Source: Candidatus Electrothrix sp. GW3-4 (GTDB lineage: Bacteria; Desulfobacterota; Desulfobulbia; Desulfobulbales; Desulfobulbaceae). Taken from it: a stretch of 32,000 nt of DNA. Position 1 is the stretch's first letter. Every line of letters starts with the position of its first letter. The stretch is from positions 3,780,001 to 3,812,000 of the forward strand of contig NZ_CP147990.1 of NCBI RefSeq assembly GCF_037902255.1, given 5' to 3'. Both the position numbers and the translations under genes were made by a program. The notes under the pieces were generated by a model. It did no database searches and was not told where the DNA came from. It was given only the letters and a program-made list of their open reading frames with translations. Below, one piece after another: positions 2,323 through 27,933 of the stretch.

Positions 2323-2377
2323 GAGAAAATTCATAAGGATATTGACAGGGCATCCTTCATCTTCAAGGAGCAGGATT

Positions 2378-6914: not shown

Positions 6915-6937
6915 TAAACCGCACAGGAGAAAATATT

Positions 6938-7930: not shown

Positions 7931-7933
7931 GCC

Positions 7934-9636: not shown

Positions 9637-9707
9637 CACCCTGGGTTAAGGACTTTACCCCGACTCGCTACCACGAATTTCATCGCAAACCATACAAGGT
9701 GTCAAGC

Positions 9708-10214
9708 ATGAATGATCTCAAAACCTGGTTGGAAAATATGGTCTTAACCTACAAGGTAATAACAATTATAATTTCCGGTGGGATACTATCTTTTTTTATT
9801 TATTTTTGGAGATATATAAAAGTTCAGTGGCGGTTTGGAAGAAATCTAAAAAGAGAAGTATACTTTCTGAAAACATCAGGCAAACATGACCTGCAAGCTG
9901 AACGAAAGAAACTGATTGATTTGAATGTATTTAATATAGCTGGAGAAGTTAAAGACATCTCAACGTCCACAAAAATATTGCAACCGATAAATAAAAATGC
10001 TGTTTATATCGTTGGCTACGATACTGACTATACTAGATATAAAGAACTTTTTGAGTCGGCAAAACCATCCGTCCCTATTATCATATTTGCCGATCAAAGA
10101 GAGATACAAAAATCAGAGCATTGGACAATATTCAATGAATATATTTATTGCGATGTAGCCAATACAACACATCGTCTTGCAATTATTTTGCTAAGTACAT
10201 TGAAAATTGTGTGA
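9708..10214 (+). CDS. Small single-pass membrane protein of unknown function, last gene of the cmr block
   Basis: The track ORF starts at GTG 9699. ATG 9708 (MNDLKTWLEN) has AAGG 8 nt upstream. One hydrophobic helix is present (VITIIISGGILSFFIYFW). It is followed by about 130 aa with an alternating beta/alpha-like pattern (VYFLKTSG, AVYIVGYD, PIIIFAD, YIYCDV). The gene is strongly AT-rich compared with its neighbours. Confidence 0.6.
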   Translation: MNDLKTWLENMVLTYKVITIIISGGILSFFIYFWRYIKVQWRFGRNLKREVYFLKTSGKHDLQAERKKLIDLNVFNIAGEVKDISTSTKILQPINKNAVYIVGYDTDYTRYKELFESAKPSVPIIIFADQREIQKSEHWTIFNEYIYCDVANTTHRLAIILLSTLKIV

Positions 10215-10273: not shown

Positions 10274-11221
10274 TCAACCATCTCCCCAACTCAAAACCTG
10301 ATACCGCCCAAACCCCTTACTAGCCTGCTTACCAATATGCAACCACTGGCCGAGCCAGAGAAAAGGCCAGAACAGCTCCGGGTCCCTGGGCGCAAAATCC
10401 ACTGTTCCCAGAAATCCCCTCAACTCCACCTCCCTCCCCTGTCGCGCTGACCACCAGGTGGTGGTATGCGAGCGCAGGGCAATATTCATGACTTCGGACT
10501 GGGCCGCGCAGTCCTTGAGGGCCCGAAAATCGGCCTCCAGGGGACAGCCCATGTAAAAATACTGAAGCAGAGAAACACGCCGGATCACAGCCATGAGCAA
10601 CCGGCTGATCTCAAGGGTCTCTGGGCGGAAGGACTTGTCCGAGGGCAGATAGGGGGTGAGGAAGTGCAGCCGCAGAGCTGCGGGCGCAGGCGGCACCAGA
10701 GCTTGCTCCATAATACTGTCCTGAACCTCGCCCTGCTGATCCCAGATCAGCCGCTGGCCACCCGGCAACACCTGAGCAACTTGGAGCAATTCCGCCTTTG
10801 CCCTGTCCGAGCCAAACCCCAAGCGCCCGGATTTCTCCATAGCCCGAATCACCGCAGGCAGGCGTTTGCAGGCAGCCCCGGCTAGCACCAGGCCGTGGCT
10901 GAATTGTCCACCCGGCGAGATGCTCGCCGCACCGCATTGGTCGCTGTGAAAGATATGGGGCAACGGCACCGTGCCCACCTTGCGCATGATCTCCGCTTCT
11001 GGCGGCCTGGGGCCTTTGATGAAAAAGGCAAAATCGCATTGATGGCAAAGCATGCAGTCGGCACAGTCAGCATTGGGGGCAATACAGCTCTGCTGGTGCA
11101 GGGCCAGCCCGAACACACTGCGGCGGAGCGGGTCGGAAAAGAGCGGCAGGGTCAGGGGATCACGGGCCGTAAAGGTGAAACGGTATTCGGCAAGAATGAG
11201 ATGGGGTGTGCAAGGTTGCAT
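10274..11221 (-). CDS. cas6: Cas6-family pre-crRNA endoribonuclease, paralogue 2
   Basis: From ORF 10274-11272. It has the same HIGKQASKGFGRY loop and Cys-rich motif as paralogue 1. ATG 11221 (MQPCTPHLILAEYRF) is preceded by AGAAGG about 9 nt upstream. The ATG at 11272 is an alternative start. Confidence 0.8.
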   Translation of the reverse strand: MQPCTPHLILAEYRFTFTARDPLTLPLFSDPLRRSVFGLALHQQSCIAPNADCADCMLCHQCDFAFFIKGPRPPEAEIMRKVGTVPLPHIFHSDQCGAASISPGGQFSHGLVLAGAACKRLPAVIRAMEKSGRLGFGSDRAKAELLQVAQVLPGGQRLIWDQQGEVQDSIMEQALVPPAPAALRLHFLTPYLPSDKSFRPETLEISRLLMAVIRRVSLLQYFYMGCPLEADFRALKDCAAQSEVMNIALRSHTTTWWSARQGREVELRGFLGTVDFAPRDPELFWPFLWLGQWLHIGKQASKGFGRYQVLSWGDG

Positions 11222-11286
11222 ATCATGCCTTCTGTCTGAAAAAATGTTTCGCGTGGAGGGCTGTAGGGGCACGACGTGCCGTGCCC

Positions 11287-11592
11287 TTACTTCACCTCAA
11301 TAACCCGAAAGCCCTGATTACCAAAGCAGTAGATGACAAACAGGGCAATCCGTGCCCCTGGGTATTCCTGGCGCAGACCGTCGGCATAGCCAGCGATCTG
11401 TTCTGTATCTTGGGGCCGAAGCTGAAAATCCGCAATACTGGTTTTCATTTTTTTAAATTCGCTGTTGGAAAAATACTTAAATTCAATCACCCAGCGCAGG
11501 CCTGCGTAGATTTCGTTATACTTGGGCTTGTCAGTGGTCCATTCATTTTGAAAGGCTTTTTTCGCAAGGATACCCTGATGCTTACTTGCTGT
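11287..11592 (-). pseudogene. Probable 5'-truncated remnant of a PD-(D/E)XK-type nuclease gene
   Basis: The frame is open for 101 codons from an in-frame stop at 11593-11595. Its only start candidate is GTG 11490. It reads ..WTTDKPKYNEIYAGLRWVIEFKYF..DTEQIAGYADGLRQEYPGARIALFVIYCFGNQGFRVIEVK. The D-x13-E-x-K spacing and layout resemble the C-termini of the genes at 15366 and 20567. The family link is by eye only. Confidence 0.35.
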
Positions 11593-11845
11593 TCAAGCAC
11601 ACATAATACACAGATGCGGCTTGTTTGTCAGGTCGGATAAGGGGCGTTAGGGGAAAATGATGTTTTTTGAGGGGATTGCTGACTGATGCTTGCTGTTTTT
11701 CGTTTCCAGTAGCTCCAGCATATGTTACTATTATACCTGTCTTTAGATTGTTATGAGTAGGGGAACCGTCAAGCAATGGCTGGCGGAGATGATAGCGCAG
11801 GTGGTTTGTGCCTACTGAGAGAAAGGGGGGAAATCGGCCGGACAT

Positions 11846-12120
11846 GGAATTTTTTCAGGTTATTTTTTCTCGTTGTCATTATTCGTCATGATTAAAAAAA
11901 TGCATTTATAATTTTGATTTTTCAGGTAAAAATATTTTGAAAAACACTGTAAATTCAACTTTTAATACTGATTATGACAAAGTAGTCACGATGTCGTGCA
12001 ACGAATTGTATTATCGCTTGTAATGCCGATTCAAAATTCACAACTTTCAAAACCCGTTTCCATGTCGTTTTTTTACTTGCTTAATCTGCTGAATCTACTA
12101 TCGTTTGAAGCAAGGCCGCT
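11846..12120 (+). promoter_or_regulatory. AT-rich leader of CRISPR array 1
   Basis: About 275 bp of very AT-rich non-coding sequence immediately 5' of the first repeat. Orientation is inferred from the repeat 3' end ATTAAGAC, which resembles the canonical 8-nt crRNA handle. Confidence 0.5.
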
Positions 12121-14396
12121 GTCGTAGCACCTACCCTATGAAGAGGGTATTAAGACTTGGGCAGTTCCTCCCGTCCAAGAAAACTGGATGTCGTAGCACC
12201 TACCCTATGAAGAGGGTATTAAGACACAAGCATGGAGCAGGCTACAAGCCTGCTCCGTGTCGTAGCACCTACCCTATGAAGAGGGTATTAAGACGGGTAG
12301 GGATTTTACCAGCCAGAATAGTCCAAAGAGTCGTAGCACCTACCCTATGAAGAGGGTATTAAGACTTGATCGCTTGCCCGTAGCACCAGACATTCCGGTC
12401 GTAGCACCTACCCTATGAAGAGGGTATTAAGACCCATTTTGCCTAACTCTTTAAGTATCTGCTCGATGTCGTAGCACCTACCCTATGAAGAGGGTATTAA
12501 GACCTCTGAAAGTAACCTCCTCCACCTCATAGTACGCTGTCGTAGCACCTACCCTATGAAGAGGGTATTAAGACAGCGATGATGTTGCGGGGTGTAAAAA
12601 TCTTTTTCACGTCGTAGCACCTACCCTATGAAGAGGGTATTAAGACGCCATTCGTGAGCCTCTTCTTCAGAGAAGAAAGTCGTAGCACCTACCCTATGAA
12701 GAGGGTATTAAGACTGAGACGAGGAAGGACTTCCTCCCTCGTTTCCGTCGTAGCACCTACCCTATGAAGAGGGTATTAAGACCCCAGCGAAGAAAATCAA
12801 TCTTCTGGTTCTGGCTGTCGTAGCACCTACCCTATGAAGAGGGTATTAAGACACTCCTTCCGCCTGTGCCCCAGCGATGCTGGGGAGGTCGTAGCACCTA
12901 CCCTATGAAGAGGGTATTAAGACCGATTAAAAGGTCTCCGTTATCGCAGCTAGCGACTGTCGTAGCACCTACCCTATGAAGAGGGTATTAAGACAGTAGT
13001 TTTTTACACAAATGTGTCGCAGGGAAGAGGTCGTAGCACCTACCCTATGAAGAGGGTATTAAGACCTTAAATAATCCACCTCATTAGCGGTCATAACAGT
13101 GTCGTAGCACCTACCCTATGAAGAGGGTATTAAGACAACTTTGTAGTTCTTTGGGTATTATCATGATGTCGTAGCACCTACCCTATGAAGAGGGTATTAA
13201 GACTAAAAGGTGGTTGCGAGTTAGACACTGCTATCTCTGTCGTAGCACCTACCCTATGAAGAGGGTATTAAGACGACGAAATTGTTCAACGTGATAGCAA
13301 CTACGGCGGGTCGTAGCACCTACCCTATGAAGAGGGTATTAAGACAATTTTTTTCAGTTGTCTTCATTAGAGCATCCCGTCGTAGCACCTACCCTATGAA
13401 GAGGGTATTAAGACTCTTTAGTGTGGACACTATAATTTTCTTCTGGTCGTAGCACCTACCCTATGAAGAGGGTATTAAGACTTCACGCCTACTCCTTTCT
13501 TCGTGTTTTGCCCTCGTCGTAGCACCTACCCTATGAAGAGGGTATTAAGACTTTTGTTGCCCATGCCCTTTTTCTCGTATCGCTCCGTCGTAGCACCTAC
13601 CCTATGAAGAGGGTATTAAGACGTTACAATTAAGTTCAACTTTGCGACCTGAAGGGTCGTAGCACCTACCCTATGAAGAGGGTATTAAGACTTTCGAGTA
13701 AAAACTACTGCATACCTACCGAGATACGTCGTAGCACCTACCCTATGAAGAGGGTATTAAGACTTTTGCCCAGAAGAATCTCTAGAACTCCAGCTTCGTC
13801 GTAGCACCTACCCTATGAAGAGGGTATTAAGACAACATTAATATCATCACTACTCCCGTTAGTGACGTCGTAGCACCTACCCTATGAAGAGGGTATTAAG
13901 ACCGAAGGATTTTTGATCTTGCGACAAATCTGCACGAGGTCGTAGCACCTACCCTATGAAGAGGGTATTAAGACCGTTGGAGAGGTTGTCAATTGCTTCT
14001 TTCTCGGAACGTCGTAGCACCTACCCTATGAAGAGGGTATTAAGACTTCCTCTAGGCTCTCCATTTTTAAAGAAAATGGGGTCGTAGCACCTACCCTATG
14101 AAGAGGGTATTAAGACATGACGCTCGAGCGACCAGTTAAACGCAGGTACTGTCGTAGCACCTACCCTATGAAGAGGGTATTAAGACGCGTTGCCACTGCT
14201 GGCAACGTAACTTTCCGCTGTCGTAGCACCTACCCTATGAAGAGGGTATTAAGACCTCCTCAGCCTGCGCATTTGCTTGTGCGTCTGCCTGTCGTAGCAC
14301 CTACCCTATGAAGAGGGTATTAAGACATAGCCCGGCTTAGGCGGATTACCTTGAGCTAAGGTCGTAGCACCTACCCTATGAAGAGGGTATTAAGAC
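12121..14396 (+). CRISPR. CRISPR array 1: 33 repeats and 32 spacers
   Basis: The 36-nt repeat is GTCGTAGCACCTACCCTATGAAGAGGGTATTAAGAC. I saw no variant copy by eye. Spacers are about 31-36 nt by hand count. The repeat has an internal hairpin, TACCCT-ATGAAG-AGGGTA. Confidence 0.98.
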
Positions 14397-14531
14397 CAAA
14401 TTAACAGCGGGCTTTCGCCTACTCTCATCCCATCCTTTTTCACCTTTCTCTCTTATTCTGATTCCAAACTTTGAGCATATCGAATATAATAGCTTATTCG
14501 TCCTTGTTGCTTTGTCTCTAAGAGGGGAAAA

Positions 14532-14822
14532 GTGATTTACAATTTTGAGTGGAATCCGAATAAAGCCAAGAAAAATATCCGGAAGCATAAGGTCAGCTTT
14601 GAAGAAGCGTCTACAGTGTTTCGTGACCCAGCAGCTTTGACAATATTTGACCCTGACCATAGTGAAACGGAAGACAGGTGGCTAACAGTCGGAATTTCCA
14701 GAGCTGGCAAAGTGCTGTTGGTTTGTCATACATATAAGCAAGTTGACGTGGAAACGGCAATAATTCGTATATTTTCAAGCCGGAAAGCCACTGCATCTGA
14801 AAAAAGGGAATATGGTGAGTGA
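14532..14822 (+). CDS. brnT: BrnT (DUF497) ribonuclease toxin
   Basis: 96 aa, with a GTG start preceded by GAGGGG. FEWNPNKAKKNIRKHKVSFEEASTVFRDP...IRIFSSRKATASEKREY fits the DUF497/BrnT consensus as I recall it. Confidence 0.85.
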   Translation: MIYNFEWNPNKAKKNIRKHKVSFEEASTVFRDPAALTIFDPDHSETEDRWLTVGISRAGKVLLVCHTYKQVDVETAIIRIFSSRKATASEKREYGE

Positions 14823-15024
14823 GATGAGAAAAGAGTATGATTTTTCCCAAGGCGAACGAGGAAAATTTTTAAAAAAAGATGTCAAGCTCAACCTTCCTGT
14901 TTACCTTGAAGACGATATTTTTGATTATATTGAAAAAATTGCAAAAAAAAGAAAAGCTGATGTGTCTTCTGTTGTTAATCAGCTTTTACGTAGCGATATT
15001 CAAATGATTGAATCTGTTAAGTAG
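14812..15024 (+). CDS. brnA: BrnA-like antitoxin
   Basis: 70 aa. It overlaps the brnT 3' end by 11 nt. MRKEYDFSQGERGKF...PVYLEDDIFDYIEKIA...VVNQLLRSDIQMIE is the typical small antitoxin pattern found downstream of BrnT. Confidence 0.75.
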   Translation: MVSEMRKEYDFSQGERGKFLKKDVKLNLPVYLEDDIFDYIEKIAKKRKADVSSVVNQLLRSDIQMIESVK

Positions 15025-15053
15025 AACCTGATTCTTTCAGAGACTCGCGTTAA

Positions 15054-15089
15054 GCTGTAGCACCTACCCTATGAAGAGGGTATTAAGAC
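15054..15089 (+). repeat. Orphan or terminal CRISPR repeat of array-1 type (34/36 match)
   Basis: GCTGTAGCACCTACCCTATGAAGAGGGTATTAAGAC differs from the array-1 repeat only at positions 2-3 (CT for TC). It lies 657 bp after repeat 33. Confidence 0.9.
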
Positions 15090-15317
15090 CGTAGGGGCGA
15101 CCGGCCGGTCGCCCCTACGCCCCGTGCAATCTTTTCAGAAATTCCACCTTCTTCCGCAGTTGCCGTGTGTCTGCCCTTGATGTCTCCACCAAGACAGGCC
15201 GGGCAAACACCCCGGCTGAAAATGCTTTTTTCATCCCACCCCCTCCTTTTTCACCACCCCCAGAAAACATATTGATAAACCACCCAATACAGGTAGTATT
15301 CAGGTGAGAACATCCAA
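15090..15317 (+). repeat. Array trailer, copy A. It has a 30-nt perfect palindrome and a candidate promoter for the downstream gene.
   Basis: CGTAGGGGCGACCGGCCGGTCGCCCCTACG (15090-15119) is a perfect palindrome. By eye, the whole segment is identical to 20259-20500 except for a 14-nt indel. It also contains TTGATA (15272-15277), a 16-nt spacer and TAGTAT (15294-15299). Confidence 0.85.
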
Positions 15318-15365
15318 ACGAGCCGCCAACTTGCCCGGCATCCGTCCGACACCTGAAGGAGCAAC

Positions 15366-16925
15366 ATGGAGAAATTAGGCTTAGGGATACAGGAACTGGC
15401 TGTATTCAAAGAGAAGGGGCTGATCTATGTGGATAAAACCGAGCTTATTGAAAAACTGATAAACAGTGGCAAATACTATTTCCTCTCCCGGCCCAGACGC
15501 TTTGGTAAATCCCTGCTGGTCAACACAATCCAGGAGCTTTTTTCCGGCAACAAAGACCTGTTCACAGGCTGTCACGTACATGATTCCTGGAACTGGGAGG
15601 AGAAACACCCGGTCATAAAGATCAGCTTTTCAGAGATGAACTACCGGCAGGACGGTCTGGAAAAGGCCCTGGAGGACTCCCTGCTGCAATTAGCTGAGGA
15701 GCATGGTGTCCAATTTACTACATCAGGTTACGGCAACAGGTTTCTGGAGCTGATCAAGGCGGTGGGCAGGGAAACACCGGCGGTTGTCCTGATTGATGAA
15801 TACGATAAACCAATTATTGATTATCTGGAAAAATCCGCCAACGAACAGGCCGAAGCAAATCGGGAAATACTGAAAACCTTCTATACCGGCATCAAGGATC
15901 AGGACAGGTTTCTCCGCTTCCTCCTGATCACCGGGGTATCCAAGTTCAGCAAGGTTTCCATCTTCAGCGACCTGAACCACCTGACCGACATCACCGTGTC
16001 CAGGCATTTTGCTGCGATAGCCGGGTACAGCGAAGCGGAAATCAGGCGGCATTACCCACAGTACCTGACCGCGCTCAGCCGGGATTACAACCTCTCCGAA
16101 GACGAGATGATGAAGGAGATTGCCCTCTGGTATAACGGCTACTCCTGGGACGGCAAGACCTTCCTCTTTAACCCCTATTCGATCATCAGTCTGTTTTTTC
16201 ACCAGATATTTAAGAATTTCTGGTTCGAAACCGGCACCCCAACCTTTCTTGTTCAACGGATCAAGGAGTCTGGCCGGAAGATCAACGAGTCCATAAGCAA
16301 GGAGATCAACGAATCCGTCTTTAGCAGGTATGATGTCGATAATATGAACACCACAGCCATCATGTTTCAGACAGGCTACCTGACCATCAAGGAGTTTGAC
16401 TGGAGACGGAACAAGTACCGCCTTGATTTCCCGAACAAAGAGGTCCGTGAATCCTTTCTCCATTTTGCTGCGGAGCATTATGTGGGCAGCTCCCAGGATG
16501 AGATGGGCGGCATTACGGAAATGCTGGCCGAGGCCCTTGCCTTGAACGATATGCAGAGCTTTTTTATTGCCCTGCAAGCCCTGTTCAGTTCAATAGCGGT
16601 CAAGCAGCTGGACAAAGTGAAGGAATACGAAGGATTTTATCATTCCGTGATCTATATTGTCCTGAAGCTCCTCGGTATGCAGATCGCCTGTGAAGTGCAG
16701 TCAAATTTCGGCACCACAGATGCGGTCCTGCAAACAGCGGAACATATCTATGTGCTTGAGTTCAAAATGGGCACTGCCGCCTCGGCACTGGAACAGATCA
16801 AAAAGAGAAAATATCACACGCCGTATCTTGCCGATCAACGGGGTTTGGTGCTTGTCGGTTTCGGTTTTGACAAGGCGGAACGAAATCTGACGGATTTTCT
16901 TGCTGAGGAGATAGAGAATCGGTGA
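15366..16925 (+). CDS. AAA-ATPase-like plus PD-(D/E)XK (PDDEXK_9/DUF1703-type) protein, paralogue A
   Basis: 519 aa. The N-terminus YVDKTELIEKLI..YYFLSRPRRFGKSLL and VVLIDEYDKP fit the AAA-ATPase_like domain. The C-terminus TTDAVLQTAEHIYVLEFKMG..ALEQIKKRKY has the PD-(D/E)XK D...ExK core. Confidence 0.85.
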   Translation: MEKLGLGIQELAVFKEKGLIYVDKTELIEKLINSGKYYFLSRPRRFGKSLLVNTIQELFSGNKDLFTGCHVHDSWNWEEKHPVIKISFSEMNYRQDGLEKALEDSLLQLAEEHGVQFTTSGYGNRFLELIKAVGRETPAVVLIDEYDKPIIDYLEKSANEQAEANREILKTFYTGIKDQDRFLRFLLITGVSKFSKVSIFSDLNHLTDITVSRHFAAIAGYSEAEIRRHYPQYLTALSRDYNLSEDEMMKEIALWYNGYSWDGKTFLFNPYSIISLFFHQIFKNFWFETGTPTFLVQRIKESGRKINESISKEINESVFSRYDVDNMNTTAIMFQTGYLTIKEFDWRRNKYRLDFPNKEVRESFLHFAAEHYVGSSQDEMGGITEMLAEALALNDMQSFFIALQALFSSIAVKQLDKVKEYEGFYHSVIYIVLKLLGMQIACEVQSNFGTTDAVLQTAEHIYVLEFKMGTAASALEQIKKRKYHTPYLADQRGLVLVGFGFDKAERNLTDFLAEEIENR

Positions 16926-17226
16926 ACAAAATAACTTTTGTTATCAATACGCTTTCTCCTTGCCGGACATTAAGGTTGATTCACCCTGCCGGAGCAAAAT
17001 GCGCGAACCTCAAGCAGACATTTTGGGAAATACATTTTTATGGCCAATAACAACCCTGATACAGCAAGTTACACGGAAAAACAGAAAAACAGGTTCGCAG
17101 TGCTTGAAATTATTATAAAAAGAGGTAATATGAGGCCTGTTGTAACGGGTGTTGCAACCGGTCTGACAGGGGTTCGCGCAAACCACCTTGCAGCTCTTTG
17201 ATGTTAAAAGAGAAAAAAGGGTGACA
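16926..17226 (+). promoter_or_regulatory. Leader of CRISPR array 2
   Basis: 301 bp of non-coding sequence 5' of the first array-2 repeat. I see no similarity to the array-1 leader. Confidence 0.45.
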
Positions 17227-20200
17227 GTTGCAGCACCCCACCCTATGAAGAGGGTATTGAGACCCAGCCTGGAACATCAACGGTTGCCTTGTATACTGTT
17301 GCAGCACCCCACCCTATGAAGAGGGTATTGAGACTCAATTACTTTTGTTTTTTTCTTGCGATATATTCTTGTTGCAGCACCCCACCCTATGAAGAGGGTA
17401 TTGAGACATATCCACCGTTGCCAGATTTTTATGAGTCGCGTGGTTGCAGCACCCCACCCTATGAAGAGGGTATTGAGACATGGTTTTAACAACTCTGGGC
17501 CTAAAATCGTTTGGTTGCAGCACCCCACCCTATGAAGAGGGTATTGAGACAAGTGCGTATTCTCTAGCCTTCCAAGCTACTTCCGTTGCAGCACCCCACC
17601 CTATGAAGAGGGTATTGAGACACTTAACATTTTTTTTTCTCCGTTTGTTTTTATGAGTTGCAGCACCCCACCCTATGAAGAGGGTATTGAGACGAGGTCA
17701 AACTCTTCAGCGACTTCGCTGTCGCTGAGTTGCAGCACCCCACCCTATGAAGAGGGTATTGAGACATCGGAAGCTTAATTTCAGACTCGCCAGAAGGATG
17801 TTGCAGCACCCCACCCTATGAAGAGGGTATTGAGACGCCCATCAACAATCCTTATGCGCCGGGCCGGACTTGTTGCAGCACCCCACCCTATGAAGAGGGT
17901 ATTGAGACTTGGCTTTGCCGGTCAAGAGCAATGGCAAAAAGACGTTGCAGCACCCCACCCTATGAAGAGGGTATTGAGACCGAGTCGATTACGAAGAAAT
18001 GAGCTTTGCGTACCGTTGCAGCACCCCACCCTATGAAGAGGGTATTGAGACCGAGCTGGAGCACTGAGCCTTTAAGGTCCCCCTCGTTGCAGCACCCCAC
18101 CCTATGAAGAGGGTATTGAGACCTGCTCCCTTCAGCATCAAAAACAACAAATCCCTGTTGCAGCACCCCACCCTATGAAGAGGGTATTGAGACAACCCAG
18201 CAGGGTAGTTATGCCCTCGCTCCGGGCACGTTGCAGCACCCCACCCTATGAAGAGGGTATTGAGACAAGTTCTTCATAGTATTCTGACAGGGCAATGAGC
18301 GCGTTGCAGCACCCCACCCTATGAAGAGGGTATTGAGACAGGAGTGTATGCATGTCTTTCGGCAACAGCGGTTGTTGCAGCACCCCACCCTATGAAGAGG
18401 GTATTGAGACATTGTCACTCAAATCTACCGAGGCGGTGAGGTCGTTGCAGCACCCCACCCTATGAAGAGGGTATTGAGACTGTCCAGGAGAGTTTTTTTG
18501 CGTAGCGCAACCAGAGTTGCAGCACCCCACCCTATGAAGAGGGTATTGAGACACGCTATTCTCCTTGCCCCGTTGCCGGGGCGGTTGGTTGCAGCACCCC
18601 ACCCTATGAAGAGGGTATTGAGACCACGTCTTGTCAGTGCCTTTTTTGCGCTGGATTTTGTTGCAGCACCCCACCCTATGAAGAGGGTATTGAGACCCCT
18701 AAAGGATCTTGCCAGATCATGATATCCTCGGTTGCAGCACCCCACCCTATGAAGAGGGTATTGAGACTGCTCCCGTGTTGGTCGTTGCGATACCGGATAA
18801 AGGTTGCAGCACCCCACCCTATGAAGAGGGTATTGAGACGTCGCAGAGTAAGGTCGCTGTCCACATTTAAAAGTTGCAGCACCCCACCCTATGAAGAGGG
18901 TATTGAGACAGCTTCAGCCAGCACCTCTTCATGCCACCCTTCAGTTGCAGCACCCCACCCTATGAAGAGGGTATTGAGACCAGGCGAAAGCCTCGGTATT
19001 GTTGCGGCTGCTACCGTTGCAGCACCCCACCCTATGAAGAGGGTATTGAGACATGCACCTCAAGGGCGTAGAGGGGTCAGGAAAGTCAAGTTGCAGCACC
19101 CCACCCTATGAAGAGGGTATTGAGACTTGTATTCCTGCGGCTCTACCACTATCTTATATGGCGTTGCAGCACCCCACCCTATGAAGAGGGTATTGAGACC
19201 GTTTACGTTTGCGGCGCTTTGCGCGCCTATCCAGGTTGCAGCACCCCACCCTATGAAGAGGGTATTGAGACAGGTCACAGAGCAGAGTCTTTGGCTTAAT
19301 ACGGGGTTGCAGCACCCCACCCTATGAAGAGGGTATTGAGACCATTTGTCGCGTGGTATCGCCCGCAAAATATATGAGTTGCAGCACCCCACCCTATGAA
19401 GAGGGTATTGAGACTACATTGTGAGCAGGTTATATCAGGCACGATTCCGTTGCAGCACCCCACCCTATGAAGAGGGTATTGAGACCTCCTCGCCCCGCTC
19501 CGGGGCGGTTGTTTTTAGGTTGCAGCACCCCACCCTATGAAGAGGGTATTGAGACGTATGGTTGACCATGCAATTCTCTTTTGTATCAAGTTGCAGCACC
19601 CCACCCTATGAAGAGGGTATTGAGACACCGCACTGATCCAGGGTTTTAAACTCAACCCGGGTTGCAGCACCCCACCCTATGAAGAGGGTATTGAGACAGC
19701 CAGATCCCTGGATCTAGAAAGGATATATTCCGTTGCAGCACCCCACCCTATGAAGAGGGTATTGAGACCGCTCTCCAGCTCCACACGTCCTTTGCTGCTG
19801 CGTTGCAGCACCCCACCCTATGAAGAGGGTATTGAGACGTTCCGTATGGTAAAAATCCACGGTAAAACTTTGTTGCAGCACCCCACCCTATGAAGAGGGT
19901 ATTGAGACTGCCAATAGCCTCCCGGTCCCTTTTCCGCCTCCGTTGCAGCACCCCACCCTATGAAGAGGGTATTGAGACACTGCGGGGGTAATGCGTGGGG
20001 GTGGGGTACTTGTTGCAGCACCCCACCCTATGAAGAGGGTATTGAGACAAAGAGATAGAGGCCCAACTCAATGCCCGCCGCGTTGCAGCACCCCACCCTA
20101 TGAAGAGGGTATTGAGACGCCAATCCATTCACGCATCATGGGAAACCGCTCGGTTGCAGCACCCCACCCTATGAAGAGGGTATTGAGACCTTGCCCGCCG

Positions 20201-20258
20201 TGTTTGTTGATTACTGTTTTGGTTGCAGCACCCCACCCTATGAAGAGGGTATTGAGAC
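17227..20258 (+). CRISPR. CRISPR array 2: 43 repeats and 42 spacers
   Basis: The 37-nt repeat is GTTGCAGCACCCCACCCTATGAAGAGGGTATTGAGAC. I saw no variant copy by eye. Spacers are about 32-37 nt. It shares the CCCTATGAAGAGGGTATT core with array 1 but differs in the 5' third and at one handle position. Confidence 0.98.
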
Positions 20259-20500
20259 CGTAGGGGCGACCGGCCGGTCGCCCCTACGCCCCGTGCAATC
20301 TTTTCAGAAATTCCACCTTCTTCCGCAGTTGCCGTGTGTCTGCCCTTAATGCTTCCACCGAGATGTCTCCACCAAGACAGGCCGGGCAAACACCCCGGCT
20401 GAAAATGCTTTTTTCATCCCACCCCCTCCTTTTTCACCACCCCCAGAAAACATATTGATAAACCACCCAATACAGGTAGTATTCAGGTGAGAACATCCAA
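20259..20500 (+). repeat. Array trailer, copy B (palindrome plus candidate promoter)
   Basis: It starts immediately after the last array-2 repeat with the same 30-nt palindrome (20259-20288). It is identical to 15090-15317 apart from a 14-nt insertion (AATGCTTCCACCGA). The TTGATA/TAGTAT pair is conserved at 20455-20460 and 20477-20482. Confidence 0.85.
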
Positions 20501-20566
20501 GCCTTGCAAGGTGGGCTACCGAGGTAAAACGATAAGACAGCCCCGTATATAGATTCAGGAAAAGAT

Positions 20567-22132
20567 ATGAAAAAACTCAGCCTAGGCATCCAGAACTTCC
20601 CAGCCTTCCAAGCCAACAACCTCATCTACGTCGACAAGACCCAGCTTATCCACAGGCTCATAGACGACGGAAGCTACTACTTCCTCTCCCGGCCCCGGCG
20701 CTTCGGCAAATCCCTACTGGTCAGCACCATGCAGGAACTGTTTTCCGGCAACAAAGAACTCTTCAAGGATTGCTGGATCTATGACCAATGGGATTGGGAG
20801 AAAAAATACCCGGTCATCAGAATCAGCTTTGCCGAAATCGACTACAGAAGCCTGGGCATGGAAAAGGCCTTGGAGCTTTTTCTTGCAGACCAGGCTGAGC
20901 AGCATAATGTCCGTTTGACCTCAACGAGTTACGGCGGTCAATTTTTAGAGCTGATCAAAGAGGTGGGTAAAGAAACACCCGTGGCGGTGTTTATTGATGA
21001 ATACGATAAACCAATCATCGATTATCTTGAACATACTCATTTCGAACAGGCCCTGGAGAACCGGGAAATCCTGAAAACGCTCTATGCCGGAATCAAAGAT
21101 CAGGGAAAATACCTGCGCTTTTTCTTTATGACCGGCGTGTCAAAGTTCAGCAAGGTCTCCATATTCAGTGATCTGAACCACCTCACCGACATAACCCTGA
21201 TTCGCCATTTTTCCGCAATCACCGGCTACACTGAAGCGGAAATCAGAACATATTACGGGGCCTACCTTCAGGCCTTGGCCGATGAACTCGGGTTGTCACA
21301 GGACGACACCATGCAACAGGTCGCCCAATGGTACAACGGCTATTCCTGGGACGGCAGCGCCTTTCTCTTTAACCCCTATTCGGTTCTACGCCTCTTGTAC
21401 GAGCAGGAATTTAAAAATTTCTGGTTTGAAACCGGAACCCCGACTTTCCTGATTAATAGGCTCAAAGAGAGCGGCAGAAAGATCAATGAATCTATCAATA
21501 AGGCGGTCAAGGAATCAGCCTTTAACAAGTATGATATTGATAATATCAACATCACCGCCATCATGTTTCAGACCGGCTACCTGACCATAAAAAAGGCGGA
21601 CAGGAGTTGTGGCGAATATCTCCTTGAATTTCCCAACAAAGAAGTGCGAGATTCTTTTCTGGACTTTGCGGTTGAGCATTACGCCGACAGCTCGCGGGAT
21701 GAGATGGGATCTGTTGTGGAAATGCTGCTTGAGGCCCTTGAGCAGAATGATATGCAAATCTTTTTCACGGCCCTCCAGGCCTTATTCAGCTCAATAACGG
21801 TTAAACAGCTGGATAAGGTTAAGGAATATGAGGGGTTTTATCATTCCATCATCTATATTGTCCTGAAGCTCCTCGGTATGCAGATCGCCTGTGAAGTGCA
21901 GTCAAATTTCGGCACCACAGATGCGGTCCTGCAAACAGCGGAACATATCTATGTGCTTGAGTTCAAAATGGGCACTGCCGCCTCGGCACTGGAACAGATC
22001 AAAAAGAGAAAATATCACACACCGTATCTTGCCGATCAACGGGGTTTGGTGCTTGTCGGTTTCGGTTTTGACAAGGCGGAACGAAATCTGACGGATTTTC
22101 TTGCTGAGGAGATAGACAAGGACGTTGGTTAG
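20567..22132 (+). CDS. AAA-ATPase-like plus PD-(D/E)XK (PDDEXK_9/DUF1703-type) protein, paralogue B
   Basis: 521 aa with the same domain motifs as paralogue A (YYFLSRPRRFGKSLL, VFIDEYDKP, YVLEFKMG). Roughly 70% aa identity to A over most of its length. The last 266 nt are near-identical to A. Confidence 0.85.
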   Translation: MKKLSLGIQNFPAFQANNLIYVDKTQLIHRLIDDGSYYFLSRPRRFGKSLLVSTMQELFSGNKELFKDCWIYDQWDWEKKYPVIRISFAEIDYRSLGMEKALELFLADQAEQHNVRLTSTSYGGQFLELIKEVGKETPVAVFIDEYDKPIIDYLEHTHFEQALENREILKTLYAGIKDQGKYLRFFFMTGVSKFSKVSIFSDLNHLTDITLIRHFSAITGYTEAEIRTYYGAYLQALADELGLSQDDTMQQVAQWYNGYSWDGSAFLFNPYSVLRLLYEQEFKNFWFETGTPTFLINRLKESGRKINESINKAVKESAFNKYDIDNINITAIMFQTGYLTIKKADRSCGEYLLEFPNKEVRDSFLDFAVEHYADSSRDEMGSVVEMLLEALEQNDMQIFFTALQALFSSITVKQLDKVKEYEGFYHSIIYIVLKLLGMQIACEVQSNFGTTDAVLQTAEHIYVLEFKMGTAASALEQIKKRKYHTPYLADQRGLVLVGFGFDKAERNLTDFLAEEIDKDVG

Positions 22133-22194
22133 CAAGGCGACACCTGCCCTATGAAGAGGGTATTGAGACCGTAGGGGCGACCGGCCGGTCGCCC
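22133..22194 (+). repeat. Degenerate CRISPR repeat plus truncated trailer palindrome (third copy)
   Basis: ...CACCTGCCCTATGAAGAGGGTATTGAGAC (ends at 22169) keeps the 3' 23 nt of the repeat exactly. Upstream of one mismatch a further CACCT matches the array-1 repeat. CGTAGGGGCGACCGGCCGGTCGCCC follows. A diverged homologue of the trailer (TGCCGTGT..GACAGG..AACACCCCGG) comes next. Confidence 0.8.
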
Positions 22195-22376
22195 TGCCGT
22201 GTCTCTATTCTTGCAGTTTTCATCGAGACAGGTCAGGGCGAACACCCCGGACAGAAACTGGCCTTGGTGTCCACCGCCCCGACGAACATTACAGAACCGC
22301 CTCTGCACCAAAGACCCAAAAATCCCCCCGCAATCCGCAACCATTCGCAATAATCCCACCACCCCACGACACTCCC

Positions 22377-22405
22377 TTGACGTGACAGCAGCTTACGTTT
22401 ATTCT
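22377..22405 (+). promoter_or_regulatory. Candidate hemL promoter
   Basis: TTGACG (22377-22382), a 17-nt spacer, then TATTCT (22400-22405). It lies about 75 nt upstream of the hemL ATG. This is a pattern match only. Confidence 0.3.
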
Positions 22406-22479
22406 GTACCAGCGCATATACATACGCCCAACGAAAAATCCAATCATCATCTCAACCCATAACCATTCCATAACTATCC

Positions 22480-23772
22480 ATGAATACCACAAATTCCGCT
22501 GCACTCTTCAAAAAAGCCTGTCAGGTCATCCCCGGCGGTGTGAACTCCCCTGTCCGTGCCTGTAACTCCGTGGGCTGCGATCCGCTTTTTGTAGCCAAGG
22601 CCCAAGGAGGCACCGTCACAGATGCGGACGGCAATGAATTCATCGATTTTGTCGGATCATGGGGGCCCATGATTCTTGGCCACGCCCATCCCGAGGTGAC
22701 CAAGGCGATTCAGGAGGCCCTGCCCGACGGAGCCAGCTTCGGCGCCCCCACGGCCTCTGAGGTGGAGATGGCGGAACTGGTCTGTGACTCTGTCCCCTCC
22801 ATAGAAAAGGTACGCTTTGTCAGCTCCGGCACCGAGGCCACCATGAGTGCCATCCGCCTGGCCCGGGGGTATACCGGGCGCAATATGGTGATTAAATTTG
22901 ACGGCTGCTACCACGGTCATGCCGACTCCTTTCTGGTCAAGGCCGGGTCCGGGGTCGCCACCCTGGGTATTCCTGGCAGTCCGGGTGTGCCTGATGATAT
23001 CGTTAAAAACACCCTCTCCATCCCCTATAATAATATCGAGGTGCTGGAAAAGACCCTGCGGGATGCCACCTTAGATATCGCCTGCGTAATCATTGAGCCG
23101 GTGGCTGGCAATATGGGGGTCATCGTTCCCGACTTGGCCTTTTTACAGAAACTGCGGGAGCTAACCGCTGAACTGGGCATTGTCCTGATCTTTGACGAGG
23201 TCATCACCGGTTTTCGGCTGGCCCTGGGTGGGGCCCAGGAACGCTTTGGCATCTTGCCGGACCTGACCTGCCTGGGTAAAATCATCGGCGGCGGCCTGCC
23301 CGTTGGGGCCTATGGCGGCAAAAAAGAAATTATGGATAATATCGCCCCAGACGGACCAGTCTATCAGGCTGGCACCCTGTCTGGCAATCCCCTAGCTATG
23401 GCTGCGGGTCTGGCCATGCTCAAGACCGTGCGCAAGCCGGGATTCTACCAGGCGCTTGAAGAAAAAAGTGATCGCTTTGCAGAGCGGCTGGCTGAAATCG
23501 GCGACAAGGCCTCGGTACCCGTTGTTCTGAACCGGATCGGCTCCATGATGACCTGCTTTTTCACCGACACTCCGGTAACGGATTTCGACTCTGCTATGCA
23601 GGCCAACACCGATCGTTATGGCCAGCATTTCCGCCAGATGCTGGCACACGGTGTCTGGCTGGCCCCTTCTCAGTTTGAGGCCCTGTTCATCTCTGCTGCC
23701 CACAGCCCGGAACAACTGGAAAAGGCCCTTGCCGTAATTGAGATATCCTTAACAAAATTGTCTGGCATGTAA
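22480..23772 (+). CDS. hemL: Glutamate-1-semialdehyde 2,1-aminomutase
   Basis: 430 aa. VIPGGVNSPVR, FIDFVGSWGPMILGHAHPEV and CLGKIIGGGLPVGAYGG (PLP-lysine region) are characteristic of HemL. Confidence 0.95.
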   Translation: MNTTNSAALFKKACQVIPGGVNSPVRACNSVGCDPLFVAKAQGGTVTDADGNEFIDFVGSWGPMILGHAHPEVTKAIQEALPDGASFGAPTASEVEMAELVCDSVPSIEKVRFVSSGTEATMSAIRLARGYTGRNMVIKFDGCYHGHADSFLVKAGSGVATLGIPGSPGVPDDIVKNTLSIPYNNIEVLEKTLRDATLDIACVIIEPVAGNMGVIVPDLAFLQKLRELTAELGIVLIFDEVITGFRLALGGAQERFGILPDLTCLGKIIGGGLPVGAYGGKKEIMDNIAPDGPVYQAGTLSGNPLAMAAGLAMLKTVRKPGFYQALEEKSDRFAERLAEIGDKASVPVVLNRIGSMMTCFFTDTPVTDFDSAMQANTDRYGQHFRQMLAHGVWLAPSQFEALFISAAHSPEQLEKALAVIEISLTKLSGM

Positions 23773-25698: not shown

Positions 25699-25710
25699 TC
25701 GTACCCCCAC

Positions 25711-25761
25711 TTTTCTTGACCTACTTTTTTTGACCTACTTTTTTTGACCTACTTTTTTTGA
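25711..25761. repeat. 14-nt tandem repeat, about 3.6 copies
   Basis: TTTT(C/T)TTGACCTAC at 25711, 25725 and 25739, plus a partial copy. It lies in the intergenic region between the terminator and the helicase stop. Confidence 0.8.
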
Positions 25762-25779: not shown

Positions 25780-27933
25780 TTACTTCCTCTTACCCGATCT
25801 TCGCTCACCCTCATCCCTCCTTTTTTTCCCTTTTAAGCGAACCGGGGCCTGCACCGCCTTCAGATACTGCTTCCCGATGGCAAGATCAACTGCCTGCACA
25901 GACTCTTCTCCTGTCCTTTCCGATTCAGCAACACAAATACACCCTCCTAAACGCTCGGAAAAATCCAGATTGGCCTCATAGAGAAAACAGCTTGCCGCAG
26001 CCCTGCCCTTTTCCGTAGTAATGGGGCTGCGGCTGTCACCAGCCTTTTTGCGCCGTTCCAAACGGCTGTCCTGGGGATAGAGCAGGCAAAGCTCCTCCTG
26101 GGCTCGGGTCATAGCGACATAAAAAAGACGACGTTCGTCTTCAATGTCTTCAACCTCCTGTTCGCCCTTCTCCTGACGAAAGGGCACTGCCCCCTCTTCC
26201 AGGCCGGGCAGGATCACCAAGGGCCATTCCAGCCCCTTGGCCCGATGAATAGAGGTAATAAGAAGGCTCTCCTGTTCCCTGGTATACTTTTTCCCTGCCC
26301 CTTTCTCAGCAAGCCTTTCTATCTCACAGAGGAAATCGTCTACACTCAACCCCGTCTTCTGGGCAAAACGAACAAAGGAGCGGCAGGTTTTGATCTTATT
26401 TTCTGCAAGAGCGGGCCGGGCAGCATAGAGAAAATGGGCATAGAGATCGCTCTCCTCTATGAGGGTATTCAGCACGGTGAAGGCCCTTATTTGGGGTGAC
26501 ATCCTGCCAACCTTCCGCCAGACATCGGCCAAATCCAACATCCTGGAGGCCAGATAGGGCGAGTTGGCTTCATCAGCATAATGCTCAATCAAGGCGTCAG
26601 CTGCACCTGGATTCTGGAGAATATTATGGGCCAGGGCATGAAGACGATCTTTTTTGAGCCAGAGATGAGGATGGGTAAGCATGGCAAGAACCGTGGCAAA
26701 ACCCGTTTCCTGCTCCCCTGCCCCCTGTAAACTGCCTTGACAAAGCCGCAGATAGCCCAACAAGGCCCTGATCTCCGGGCAGCTGAACACCGTTTCAGAA
26801 CCTACAAGGCGATAGGGAATATTATACTCCAGCAGAGCCAACTCCACCGGAACGGACTGGGCATAGATCCTGACCAGGACTGCCGCCTCATCAAGCCCTC
26901 TGTTCGCCCTTTGCCAGTCCTGCAGAATACCGATAAGGGGATGAACTTTGCCTTCAGGAAAAGAGCGGATGCGGGTATCGGGATTTCCAGACCAGGCCAG
27001 GCAGAGCTTCCGGTCCCGCAGCCTGTTATTGGAGATAAGATGATTGGCTGCCAAGGCAAGCCGGTGGCCATAGCGAAAGCTATAGCTCAGAGTATAGGTC
27101 GTTGGCCGGGGAAAATCACGGGCAAAACGGGACACAATATACTCTGGTTGAGCGCCGCGCCACTCATAAATACATTGATCCACATCACCAACCACCATAA
27201 CCTGGGCGCGTTGCCCGGCAATGTGGACCAGGAGCTGTTGCTGCACCTCATTAATATCTTGGTATTCATCAACAATAATATGATCCACATGATCAGCAAC
27301 CCAGCTGGCCAGCTCCTCTTGCTGCTGCATTGCCATGACCGGTTCGTGAATCAAATCCTGATAAAAACGGAGCCGGGCCGCCTTGCGCAGGGACTCAAAG
27401 CCCCTGTAGGCGCCCAGGTAATAAGAGAGCTGCTCCTCAAACCCGCAGGCAACAAAGACCTCCTGCGGGGCAGCGACATCAGACTTGACCCTGCTGATAA
27501 AGAGCAGAAAGCCCTCAACCCCCTCCTTGGAAGACCACGACTCATCGCCGTCAGCCTCTGCTGCATATTTTTTTATGGCCTCCCTGGCCAGCCTCTCTAC
27601 CTGAAATTCTTCCGTGACTAATCGATATCGGGGAAGATGCTGTCTGGCCGTAAAACTCTCAACCAGCCGGAGCCCGAGAGAATGGAAGGTACGCACAGCC
27701 GGTGACCGGAGACCCGTCCCCTGAAGGGACCGATGCAGTCGCTCTGCAAAAACAAAGCGGGCAGAGCGATTGAACATCAGCACCAGGATCTTCTCCGCTG
27801 CGATACCTTGCCGCAGAAGATGACCAACCCGACCTATCATGGCAGTGGTCTTACCTGAGCCAGCCACAGCACTGACCCGGGCATGACCTCTGCCATGCCG
27901 AATAATATCCTCCTGCTCTCTGGTCAGACGCAT
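25780..27933 (-). CDS. UvrD/Rep/PcrA-family ATP-dependent DNA helicase
   Basis: 717 aa. Walker A VAGSGKTT and motif II IIVDEYQDIN are present, along with a C-terminal helicase region (TSIHRAKGLEWP). Confidence 0.9.
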   Translation of the reverse strand: MRLTREQEDIIRHGRGHARVSAVAGSGKTTAMIGRVGHLLRQGIAAEKILVLMFNRSARFVFAERLHRSLQGTGLRSPAVRTFHSLGLRLVESFTARQHLPRYRLVTEEFQVERLAREAIKKYAAEADGDESWSSKEGVEGFLLFISRVKSDVAAPQEVFVACGFEEQLSYYLGAYRGFESLRKAARLRFYQDLIHEPVMAMQQQEELASWVADHVDHIIVDEYQDINEVQQQLLVHIAGQRAQVMVVGDVDQCIYEWRGAQPEYIVSRFARDFPRPTTYTLSYSFRYGHRLALAANHLISNNRLRDRKLCLAWSGNPDTRIRSFPEGKVHPLIGILQDWQRANRGLDEAAVLVRIYAQSVPVELALLEYNIPYRLVGSETVFSCPEIRALLGYLRLCQGSLQGAGEQETGFATVLAMLTHPHLWLKKDRLHALAHNILQNPGAADALIEHYADEANSPYLASRMLDLADVWRKVGRMSPQIRAFTVLNTLIEESDLYAHFLYAARPALAENKIKTCRSFVRFAQKTGLSVDDFLCEIERLAEKGAGKKYTREQESLLITSIHRAKGLEWPLVILPGLEEGAVPFRQEKGEQEVEDIEDERRLFYVAMTRAQEELCLLYPQDSRLERRKKAGDSRSPITTEKGRAAASCFLYEANLDFSERLGGCICVAESERTGEESVQAVDLAIGKQYLKAVQAPVRLKGKKRRDEGERRSGKRK

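Follow-up and report, generated by a model that had tools for sequence, protein, structure and literature searches.

Organization of the CRISPR region and its repeat-hairpin junctions

The stretch of DNA analyzed here, hereafter the window, comprises 32,000 nt of Candidatus Electrothrix sp. GW3-4 (contig NZ_CP147990.1, positions 3,780,001 to 3,812,000) and carries a type III-B CRISPR region, in which both arrays end in a repeat joined directly to a palindromic hairpin and are followed by paralogous genes, A and B, for predicted ATPase-nucleases of the DUF1703 family. Array 1 (12121-14396, + strand), with its leader at about 11640-12120, holds 33 copies of the 36-nt repeat GTCGTAGCACCTACCCTATGAAGAGGGTATTAAGAC, and array 2 (17227-20258, +) holds 43 copies of the 37-nt repeat GTTGCAGCACCCCACCCTATGAAGAGGGTATTGAGAC; the two repeats have the common core CCCTATGAAGAGGGTATT, and 18 nt of core are invariant among the CRISPR repeats compared. 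A cargo unit with repeats at both edges (14397-15053, +) separates the last regular repeat of array 1 from the terminal one (15054-15089, +), the 5' end of which is altered (GCTG in place of GTCG). The unit comprises brnT (14532-14822, +; PF04365) and a brnA-like open reading frame (ORF; 14806-15024, +). This pair was overlooked in the preliminary description of the region, and the same unit occupies the same place in Electrothrix marina (L028 and L050; L numbers denote loci fetched for comparison), with a second BrnT/A unit further along L028. Gene A (15366-16925, +) is located, as previously described, between the terminal repeat of array 1 and the leader of array 2 (leader 2; 16926-17226, +), which is 301 nt long and leads directly into array 2. 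Gene B (20567-22132, +) lies beyond the end of array 2, and a solitary repeat with a degenerate 5' half (22133-22169, +) starts at the base following its stop codon.

The preliminary description had reported a junction of repeat and palindrome in three places, the third directly after the stop codon of gene B. All three were confirmed, and they are homologous copies of one module rather than independent events, a homology that had been missed. The palindrome CGTAGGGGCGACCGGCCGGTCGCCCCTACG has exact copies at 15090-15119 (+) and 20259-20288 (+), while the third copy (22170-22199, +) differs from it at 3 positions, each near the right end; no match was found in any of 100 shuffled sequences. Each copy begins immediately 3' of the last base (...GAAGAGGGTATTRAGAC) of a CRISPR repeat (15054-15089, 20222-20258 and 22133-22169). 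The first is a perfect, GTAG-headed palindrome of 30 nt, with an RNA fold of -27.9 kcal/mol for the first 32 nt from its start, and the second is identical to it.

A GTAG head is the defining mark of repetitive extragenic palindromes (REPs), and the hairpins at these junctions fit the REP type in being short, GC-rich, imperfect palindromes with such a head (GTAGGGGCGACCGGCCGGTCGCCCCTAC and variants). The third junction has an intact left REP copy (22171-22194) that continues into the ancestral trailer, TGCCGTGTCTCTATTCTTGCAG, common to this junction, E. laxa, E. marina and L131. We take the GTAG-headed palindromes to resemble REPs mobilized by REP-associated tyrosine transposases (RAYTs), and no RAYT (Y1 transposase) gene was found in the 32-kb window or adjoining the units. 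From its distribution, the palindrome is best described as a REP-like hairpin that is not CRISPR-specific. Its 24-nt core was detected in 27 stretches of diverse IMG/VR viral contigs (L001-L027) unrelated to this repeat, often several times per contig and sometimes as inverted doublets. GTAGGGGC occurs at 30 sites in 124 kb of Electrothrix loci, housekeeping regions included, and two other genomes of the genus (L132, L030) have palindromes headed by it between housekeeping genes. A fourth GTAG-headed hairpin in the window, GTAGGGGCACGACGTGCCGTGCCC (11263-11290), stands at the start of the second cas6 gene and adjoins no repeat, which shows that hairpins of this family also occur independently of repeats. 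One 34.6-kb viral contig (three fetched stretches) has at least 10 sites with the exact core GTAGGGGCGACCGGCCGGTCGCCC, the doublets often with conserved spacers, like REP doublets forming hairpins (REPINs) or miniature mobile elements. The CRISPR repeat core was absent from IMG/VR, so no viral solitary repeat units were found there.

The preliminary description had further noted near-identical trailers after the first two junctions, and these were recovered, 15090-15317 differing from 20259-20500 by one 14-nt tandem insertion in the second copy. Past the palindromes, the trailer and upstream region of gene A (15120-15365, +) is thus identical as far as 15317 to 20289-20500 except for this indel, and the corresponding region of gene B (20289-20566, +) matches the first copy exactly up to 20500 apart from the insertion. 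Upstream of gene A there is also the right half of another type of REP (GTGTCTGCCC), and the portion at 15232-15365 is conserved 5' of both A and B orthologs. Each trailer had been said to carry a candidate promoter, and a sigma-70-like site (TTGATA-16-TAGTAT) is indeed present in both (15272-15299 and 20455-20482), although the promoter scan as a whole showed no enrichment (16 sites found versus 13.1 expected from shuffles). No T-run follows the stem of the palindromes at the first two junctions, and the terminator scan called none at any of the three palindromes, whereas in relatives a T-run resembling that of an intrinsic terminator (5 T or more among the first 8 nt past the stem) follows 11 of 25 junction hairpins.

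The module bounds varied cargo in cable bacteria

One genome per species, from 185,579 species, was scanned for the junction pattern GAAGAGGGTATT-N0-6-GTAGGGGC, and true junctions were found in Electrothrix laxa, E. aarhusensis, E. marina, YB6, an uncultured Electrothrix, one Desulfobulbaceae metagenome-assembled genome (MAG) and one evidently mis-binned contig, and nowhere else in the scan. Matches in other phyla, 5 of the 20 genome matches, lack the repeat core and were set aside as chance. The contig in question (L031; CAZEQO010000250.1, 2.5 kb), from a 'Robiginitalea sp.' MAG of the Bacteroidota, is almost certainly mis-binned: its two repeat-hairpin junction regions are as in E. aarhusensis L038, and its UPF0175/DUF3368 cargo ORFs are as in E. 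marina L041.

Among 38 unique terminal or solitary repeats of Electrothrix-type loci, 26 have GTARGGGC at a distance of 0-1 nt or in place of their last 5 nt, and approximately five more are followed by a degenerate GC hairpin, giving a total of about 31. The stems belong to several types (GCGACC/GGTCGC, GCAGAC/GTCTGC, GCGATC/GATCGC and GCGGA/TCCGC), all of which fold stably despite their sequence differences; folding was performed per sequence, as MAFFT places the hairpin types in different pairing registers and a single consensus would miscount pairs. Between GGGTATT and GTAG, 5 nt are variable (AAGAC, GAGAC, CTGAT, CTAAT, ATGAT or AAGGT) or missing altogether. Variability of the 3' end is a known trait of degenerate terminal repeats.

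A long series of units is found in L028, which is of the E. marina type and encodes an ortholog of gene A with 98% identity. Ten successive units, each consisting of one or more repeats plus a hairpin and then cargo, comprise a brnA-like ORF; a PIN pair; a reverse transcriptase (RT) fragment with HicB; BrnT/A; Transposase_31 with DUF4351; MNT/HepT; two Transposase_31 genes; DUF1703, which precedes leader 2 and array 2; a further Transposase_31; and UPF0175/DUF3368 with PIN pairs. All cargo genes in this locus are co-oriented with the repeats, and Transposase_31 proteins, which are homologs of the Rpn family of recombination-promoting nucleases, are encoded in four of the units. Cargo in other species includes HigB-like toxins and further PIN pairs, and an IS110 transposase lies downstream of one array end. 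The distance from the stop codon of the cargo to the next repeat ranges from 0 to 46 nt. Overall, the module bounds cargo other than DUF1703 in at least five species. The preliminary description had proposed a tight coupling of the junctions to one nuclease/ATPase family; this was not upheld, because the module bounds many unrelated cargo genes.

Variable slots and the history of the window junctions

Comparison with related loci revealed that the same positions are occupied differently among strains. In the window, as in L131 and L035, the slot 3' of array 2 is occupied by gene B; in E. marina (L028 and L029), it holds a Transposase_31 gene, then a repeat, a hairpin and the TGYCGTGTCTCTATTCTTGCAG trailer, as at 22133-22260 of the window; and in E. 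aarhusensis L047 it is empty, with leader 2, one repeat and a hairpin preceding hemL. In L032, array 1 has been reduced to leader 1 and one repeat ahead of the ortholog of gene A. Leader 2 is also found 3' of the A orthologs of L028, L029 and L032 and of the B ortholog of L131, and is partial in L035. In E. marina as in E. aarhusensis, the UPF0175/DUF3368 pair has kept a downstream repeat of a variant of its own (GTTTGAAC...), while the type of its upstream hairpin differs. Hybrid repeats were also found, with 5' halves of the array-1 type and of the array-2 type each fused to the same CTRAT 3' end and GCAGACC hairpin, a combination indicative of crossovers within the repeat.

The window junctions can be placed in this context. 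In L131, where the B ortholog is 91% identical, the order is repeat, C, left REP, TGCCGTGTCTC... trailer, right REP, GCCCCGTGCAATC... trailer and gene. The region 5' of the A ortholog in L028 has the right REP and downstream trailer as in L131, with a left hairpin of the GCAGACC type and a different intervening sequence. At the first two window junctions, everything between the two REP copies is missing, while the third retains the left copy and the ancestral trailer. Because the two copies are still separate in L131 and L028, the perfect 30-nt palindrome is, as judged from these alignments, a fusion of two REP copies by deletion. The B ortholog of L131 is followed by a full leader of the leader-2 type and a single repeat; in the window the leader is gone, and a half-degenerate repeat abuts the stop codon. 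By this comparison, the solitary repeat at 22133-22169 is what is left of a collapsed array, the leader of which is still present in L131. The L131 layout suggests that each DUF1703 gene, with an upstream region of its own, originally stood after an array end and before a leader and array. As an additional observation, the array of the E. laxa chromosome (L033) ends in a repeat, a hairpin and the TGCCGTGTCTC trailer, and just 3' of it are ORFs that, going by their N-terminal sequences only, resemble a reverse transcriptase, cas1 and two cas2 genes.

The 74 window spacers had no match in the window outside the arrays or in any of the fetched loci, including the 27 viral stretches. The orthologous arrays of L028, L029, L032, L035 and L131 have no spacers in common with those of the window, even at the trailer end. 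The flanking genes are nonetheless 85%-98% identical, a contrast suggesting that the arrays turn over rapidly or have been replaced wholesale.

Genes A and B encode DUF1703 ATPase-nucleases

Profile searches confirmed the domains that had been assigned to genes A and B. Both proteins (519 and 521 aa, respectively; 73% identical) match AAA-ATPase_like (PF09820; 196 bits for A and 192.9 bits for B, cut-off 26.1, E about 1e-57) and PDDEXK_9 (PF08011; ~61 bits each, cut-off 25.5, E about 1e-16). The product of gene B has 100% identity to a protein annotated from the cable bacterium Candidatus Electrothrix sp. GW3-4. In an alignment of 55 family sequences, the Walker A (G47-K48-S49) and Walker B (D144-E145) residues are invariant, as are the nuclease residues D452, E465 and K467; because these Walker and D...EXK residues are invariant, the proteins are probably active. 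No match was found in PADLOC, NCBIfam, PHROGs or by sequence-profile search of the PDB, and an AlphaFold2 model (pLDDT 86) returned only generic AAA+ matches in Foldseek (TM < 0.3), so functional inference stops at an AAA+ ATPase plus a PD-(D/E)XK nuclease. Pfam shows PF09820 and PF08011 only, with no CARF, SAVED or other cyclic-oligoadenylate sensor in either protein. DUF1703 is a multicopy family of unknown function whose paralogs recombine readily, and recombination or gene conversion among paralogs has been reported for Cardinium (PMC6387759).

A mosaic pattern of identity between the two genes had also escaped the preliminary description. Nucleotide identity is ~100% across 15090-15317 (the 228-nt trailer) and again across ~16620-16915 (the last ~295 nt of the gene), and ~70% between these two segments. 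The last ~100-110 residues of gene B are of the A type, being 95% identical to the A ortholog and 81% identical to its own ortholog (P0013). The identity of trailers and gene 3' ends is, by our reading of the alignments, the product of recent gene conversion between the two units, because both junctions have the same REP-REP deletion and because of the alternation of ~100% and ~70% identity. The direction of conversion would be from A to B, since the C-terminus of gene B is closer to the A ortholog than to P0013.

DUF1703 genes are not generally linked to CRISPR loci

A CRISPR-ancillary role for genes A and B had been suggested on the basis of their location, which would predict that homologs elsewhere are associated with CRISPR arrays. 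Homologs were surveyed in metagenomes, using the best 80 loci (34%-70% identity; 791 kb in total, median length 9.2 kb, 39 of them at least 10 kb), and none of the 80 contained a CRISPR array. Arrays were likewise absent from five loci with closer homologs for which DNA was searched (L030, L132/L133, L134, L135 and L136; 62%-84% identity). Since L132 and L133 are one and the same locus, these amount to four independent contexts. No cas genes were found near P0014 and P0015, for which gene tables only were used, or in the other homolog neighborhoods listed. Neighbors were instead housekeeping genes, defense or toxin-antitoxin genes (Abi_C, HsdM, TIR_2, HicA, MNT) and tandem DUF1703 copies. L030, which encodes the closest homolog of gene A outside the A-ortholog group (84%), places it among housekeeping genes. 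Furthermore, the array end persists in close relatives that lack the gene there, the slot being empty in E. aarhusensis and holding Transposase_31 in E. marina. On both counts, the suggested ancillary role was not borne out, and the available genomic contexts do not support DUF1703 ATPase-nucleases as a new type III accessory family. Most likely, A and B are autonomous ATP-dependent PD-(D/E)XK nucleases of a defense or selfish, multicopy, recombining kind, each with its own predicted promoter and operating outside the Cmr pathway.

Recombination at repeats and hairpins as the favored explanation

We consider it probable, at roughly 60%, that recombination at CRISPR repeats and hairpins shuffles defense or selfish cargo within the CRISPR region. 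The three window junctions are copies of one ancestral module, consisting of a terminal CRISPR repeat and an abutting GTAG-headed, GC-rich hairpin of the REP type, and in cable-bacterial type III-B regions this module is found many times over, separating co-oriented cargo such as toxin-antitoxin, Rpn/Transposase_31 and DUF1703 genes. Dispersed homologies, namely repeats, REP hairpins, leaders and paralogous genes, would allow unequal crossing-over, deletion and gene conversion to take place, and such exchange would duplicate, swap and delete units and collapse arrays to single repeats. Excision and re-insertion by repeat-by-repeat exchange may also occur, whereby orientation would be kept, and nearby Rpn-like nucleases could assist recombination. 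For the hairpin itself, a role as a terminator of array ends or cassettes seems most plausible. Genes A and B may then represent two old paralogs, each once in the order array end, own promoter, gene and leader-2-type leader with array. In this genome, recent conversion would have homogenized the 228-nt trailer and the last ~295 nt, REP-REP deletion would have created the palindrome, and the leader after gene B would have been lost. The preliminary description had also raised the idea of a cassette that recombines at, or targets, the repeat/trailer junction; this holds in a wider form, in that the module recurs with varied cargo, but no sign of active site-specific targeting was found.

Several observations weigh against this explanation. 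Junction spacing is very regular (0-1 nt) and stop codons lie 0-46 nt from the next repeat, which is tidier than passive recombination predicts. A repeat of 36-37 nt with an 18-nt invariant core is approximately at the lower limit for RecA-dependent exchange. The relatives are known as genome fragments only. Three PF09820 lineages are found inside Electrothrix CRISPR regions, namely A, B and a distant gene of E. aarhusensis (L038 4309-5832, MCF Contig20; 507 aa) located between a GTAG hairpin and cas6, and because this third gene adjoins cas6, a lineage-restricted functional link between DUF1703 and CRISPR is conceivable and may exist. The CRISPR-adjacent DUF1703 cases moreover amount to two or three orthologous positions and thus to few independent events.

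The regularity of the junctions would be expected from a dedicated site-specific cassette system, integron- or transposon-like, in which a recombinase or transposase (a REP-associated tyrosine transposase, a Xer-type or an Rpn-like enzyme) inserts units made up of hairpin, promoter, cargo and partial repeat at the 3' end of the repeat or the center of the hairpin. Consistent with such a system are the uniform junction, with 26-31 of 38 repeats followed at once by a GTAG hairpin, the co-orientation of every cargo gene, the use of the same slot for varied cargo, and the abundance of Rpn-like genes in the same loci; the window palindrome could even be read as an empty site, the halves of which are split around ~8.6 kb of cassettes in L028. 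Nonetheless, there is no integrase or RAYT gene in the window or adjoining units, and the only tyrosine recombinase seen, in L043, scores as XerC/XerD (322 and 305 bits), with a much lower integron-integrase score (139.5 bits) that is below the cut-off of that model, 265. The REP copies flanking the L131 interval are complete rather than half-sites, hairpins also occur far from any repeat, and the variable or missing 5 nt between GGGTATT and GTAG and the 0-46 nt from stop codon to repeat fit drift and deletions better than precise cleavage, and we regard a site-specific system as unlikely. About as unlikely, if marginally more so, is the broader idea that these CRISPR regions constitute an integron-like cassette platform, in which repeat plus REP/terminator hairpin would be a site for capturing, exchanging and insulating toxin-antitoxin and nuclease cassettes, and Cas6 or Cmr might act on repeats in cassette transcripts, tying cargo expression to an intact CRISPR-Cas system. 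Repeats beside cargo might alternatively be functional RNA elements in their own right, with Cas6 cutting a repeat in an untranslated region, or with a CRISPR RNA (crRNA)-like molecule made from repeat and palindrome being loaded into Cmr; in both cases toxin and nuclease expression would require a working CRISPR-Cas system, in a CreTA-like addiction or regulatory circuit. Such a role would suit a cargo that is chiefly toxins and nucleases, the two cas6 genes of the window, and the placement of solitary, partly degenerate repeats 0-46 nt past cargo stop codons and just before a stabilizing hairpin; the palindromic pseudo-spacer is self-complementary, so that a crRNA-like RNA could pair with any transcript with the same hairpin, and there is precedent in CreTA for ectopic degenerate repeats that regulate toxins (PMC9458426). 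However, the pseudo-spacers showed no complementarity to cargo genes except in the palindrome itself, a hairpin of -28 kcal/mol would make an unlikely guide, the toxin-antitoxin pairs have their own protein antitoxins, and known CreTA involves DNA binding by a type I effector rather than type III. Many solitary repeats also have a degenerate 5' half, from which weaker Cas6 recognition would be expected, and RNA elements of this kind seem quite improbable.

It is less probable still that A and B are true type III-B accessory proteins, for instance nucleases that interference recruits or activates, or factors acting on the adjoining leaders or arrays. The location of A, B and the third PF09820 gene inside Electrothrix CRISPR regions, the CRISPR leader found 3' of the gene in the window, L028, L029, L032 and L131, and a review that places PF09820-type ATPase domains in the defense systems RADAR RdrA, PARIS and Old-tin (PMC10952713) would all be in keeping with this, but arrays are absent near the 80 distant and five closer homologs, the two loci known from gene tables are without cas genes, neither CARF nor SAVED was seen in Pfam and nothing in PADLOC, relatives have the array end without the gene or with another, and the closest outside homolog is among housekeeping genes (L030, 84%). 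Least probable of all is a one-off local segmental duplication confined to this genome: the two units point the same way, lie 5.2 kb from each other and have flanks that are nearly identical, as such a duplication would leave them, yet orthologs of both A and B are at the same positions in other Electrothrix lineages, the middles of the genes have diverged by ~30%, and in at least five species it is other cargo that the module bounds, so that only the homogenization of the flanks is recent and local. Two further origins were considered and rejected. Cargo captured as 'giant spacers' by Cas1-Cas2 or RT-Cas1 does not fit the variable 0-46 nt gap between stop codon and repeat, the hybrid or degenerate right repeats and the position of the hairpin outside the insert, and random insertion into a spacer was discarded as no split spacer remnants are found beside the units.

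Other features of the window

The type III-B locus itself (cmr1-6, ~1415-9636, +) is flanked by two cas6 paralogs (1232-2266, -, and cas6-2 at 10274-11272, -), both oriented opposite to the direction of the arrays and 86% identical at the nucleotide level in part (1241-1540 versus 10292-10591). The first cas6 overlaps the long ORF called as cmr1, the true start of which is probably further in. No adaptation genes were found in the window. Directly 3' of cmr6, 9699-10214 (+) encodes a small predicted membrane protein that matches the PADLOC model C3a59 (E = 7e-13; labeled trans-membrane protein) and is a more plausible candidate for a type III accessory protein than genes A and B. To the right, the variable region is bordered by the conserved housekeeping gene hemL (glutamate-1-semialdehyde 2,1-aminomutase; 22480-23772, +), preceded by a diverged trailer and hemL upstream region (22200-22479, +) that is conserved in L035, L047 and L131.

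At the left end of the window, a HepT/MNT toxin-antitoxin pair (245-866, -) is ~81% identical to the pair in a repeat-bounded unit of L028. Conserved elements, non-coding or unknown, at 976-1087 and 1-240 have 84%-93% identity to sequences in other CRISPR and toxin-antitoxin regions of Electrothrix and Desulfobulbaceae (L028, L033, L037, L038, L048 and L050), and a number of short hairpins, GTTCCCAAGCCGGAGCTTGGGAAC among them, fall within the former. At 25706-25761, just downstream of a UvrD-like helicase gene (25780-27933, -), there are four units of a 14-nt tandem repeat, CCTACTTTTTTTGA. An Rfam scan of the whole window detected tRNA-Sec only (RF01852, 74.9 bits, 28532-28625, +), with no match in the trailers.

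Comparison with known systems

Toxin-antitoxin genes are known to be interspersed in CRISPR-Cas regions, such as vapBC in Sulfolobales (PMC4390879), in C. difficile type I toxin-antitoxin genes adjoin arrays (PMC5961336), and CRISPR arrays have been described to recombine both internally and with one another (bioRxiv 10.1101/2022.05.19.492656). Together with REPs and the recombination of DUF1703 genes, each part of the arrangement reported here is therefore already known, and it is their combination that was not found in the literature searched, which covered PDDEXK_9/PF09820 and CRISPR, Electrothrix CRISPR or toxin-antitoxin loci, genes within arrays, and ectopic repeats of type III systems. 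The results remove a tempting false lead, in that DUF1703 ATPase-nucleases need not be taken for a new type III accessory family, and they caution against a naive reading of spacer order or 'array ends' in such genomes. If only passive recombination is at work, the region would offer a natural example of CRISPR repeats and REP hairpins serving as portable homology that reshapes a defense island. If an active mechanism or Cas6-dependent control proved true, it would represent a new coupling of selfish or defense cargo to CRISPR-Cas.

Genes A and B agree with the DUF1703 family in domain architecture, length, catalytic motifs and multicopy recombining habit, and differ in the placement of paralogs at CRISPR array ends, which is not known to have been described before and which the family at large does not show (0 of 80 loci). 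As in loci with interspersed toxin-antitoxin genes, toxin-antitoxin and nuclease genes gather here at CRISPR-Cas in variable, recombination-prone regions; in contrast to those loci, the cargo lies between the repeats themselves, bounded each time by a repeat plus a GC hairpin and arranged in long co-oriented series. The hairpins are like REPs, REPINs and bacterial interspersed mosaic elements (BIMEs) in being GTAG-headed, GC-rich, multicopy and intergenic, with inverted doublets in viral contigs, L030 and L131, but they are placed systematically after CRISPR terminal repeats, no RAYT gene was seen, and many copies with T-runs are terminator-like.

The series of units recalls integron cassette arrays, with which it has in common co-oriented cargo that is promoter-poor or self-promoted, a recurring structured repeat, frequent toxin-antitoxin genes and strain-variable slots. 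However, there is no IntI in the window and no attC core-site (R'/R'') organization, none of the repeat starts (GTTGCAG, GTCGTAG and GTTGGAA) fits the attC core GTTRRRY, and the boundary is an imprecise one of repeat plus hairpin. CreTA similarly combines degenerate, ectopic CRISPR repeats with neighboring toxin genes, but here there is no guide that would pair with the promoter or mRNA of a toxin, the system is of type III rather than type I, and the antitoxins are proteins. A further correspondence is to known array dynamics, which include collapse to one repeat, a variable 3' end of the last repeat, hybrid repeats and an absence of common spacers among relatives; in the Electrothrix regions, by contrast, the exchanged segments are whole genes and not spacers.

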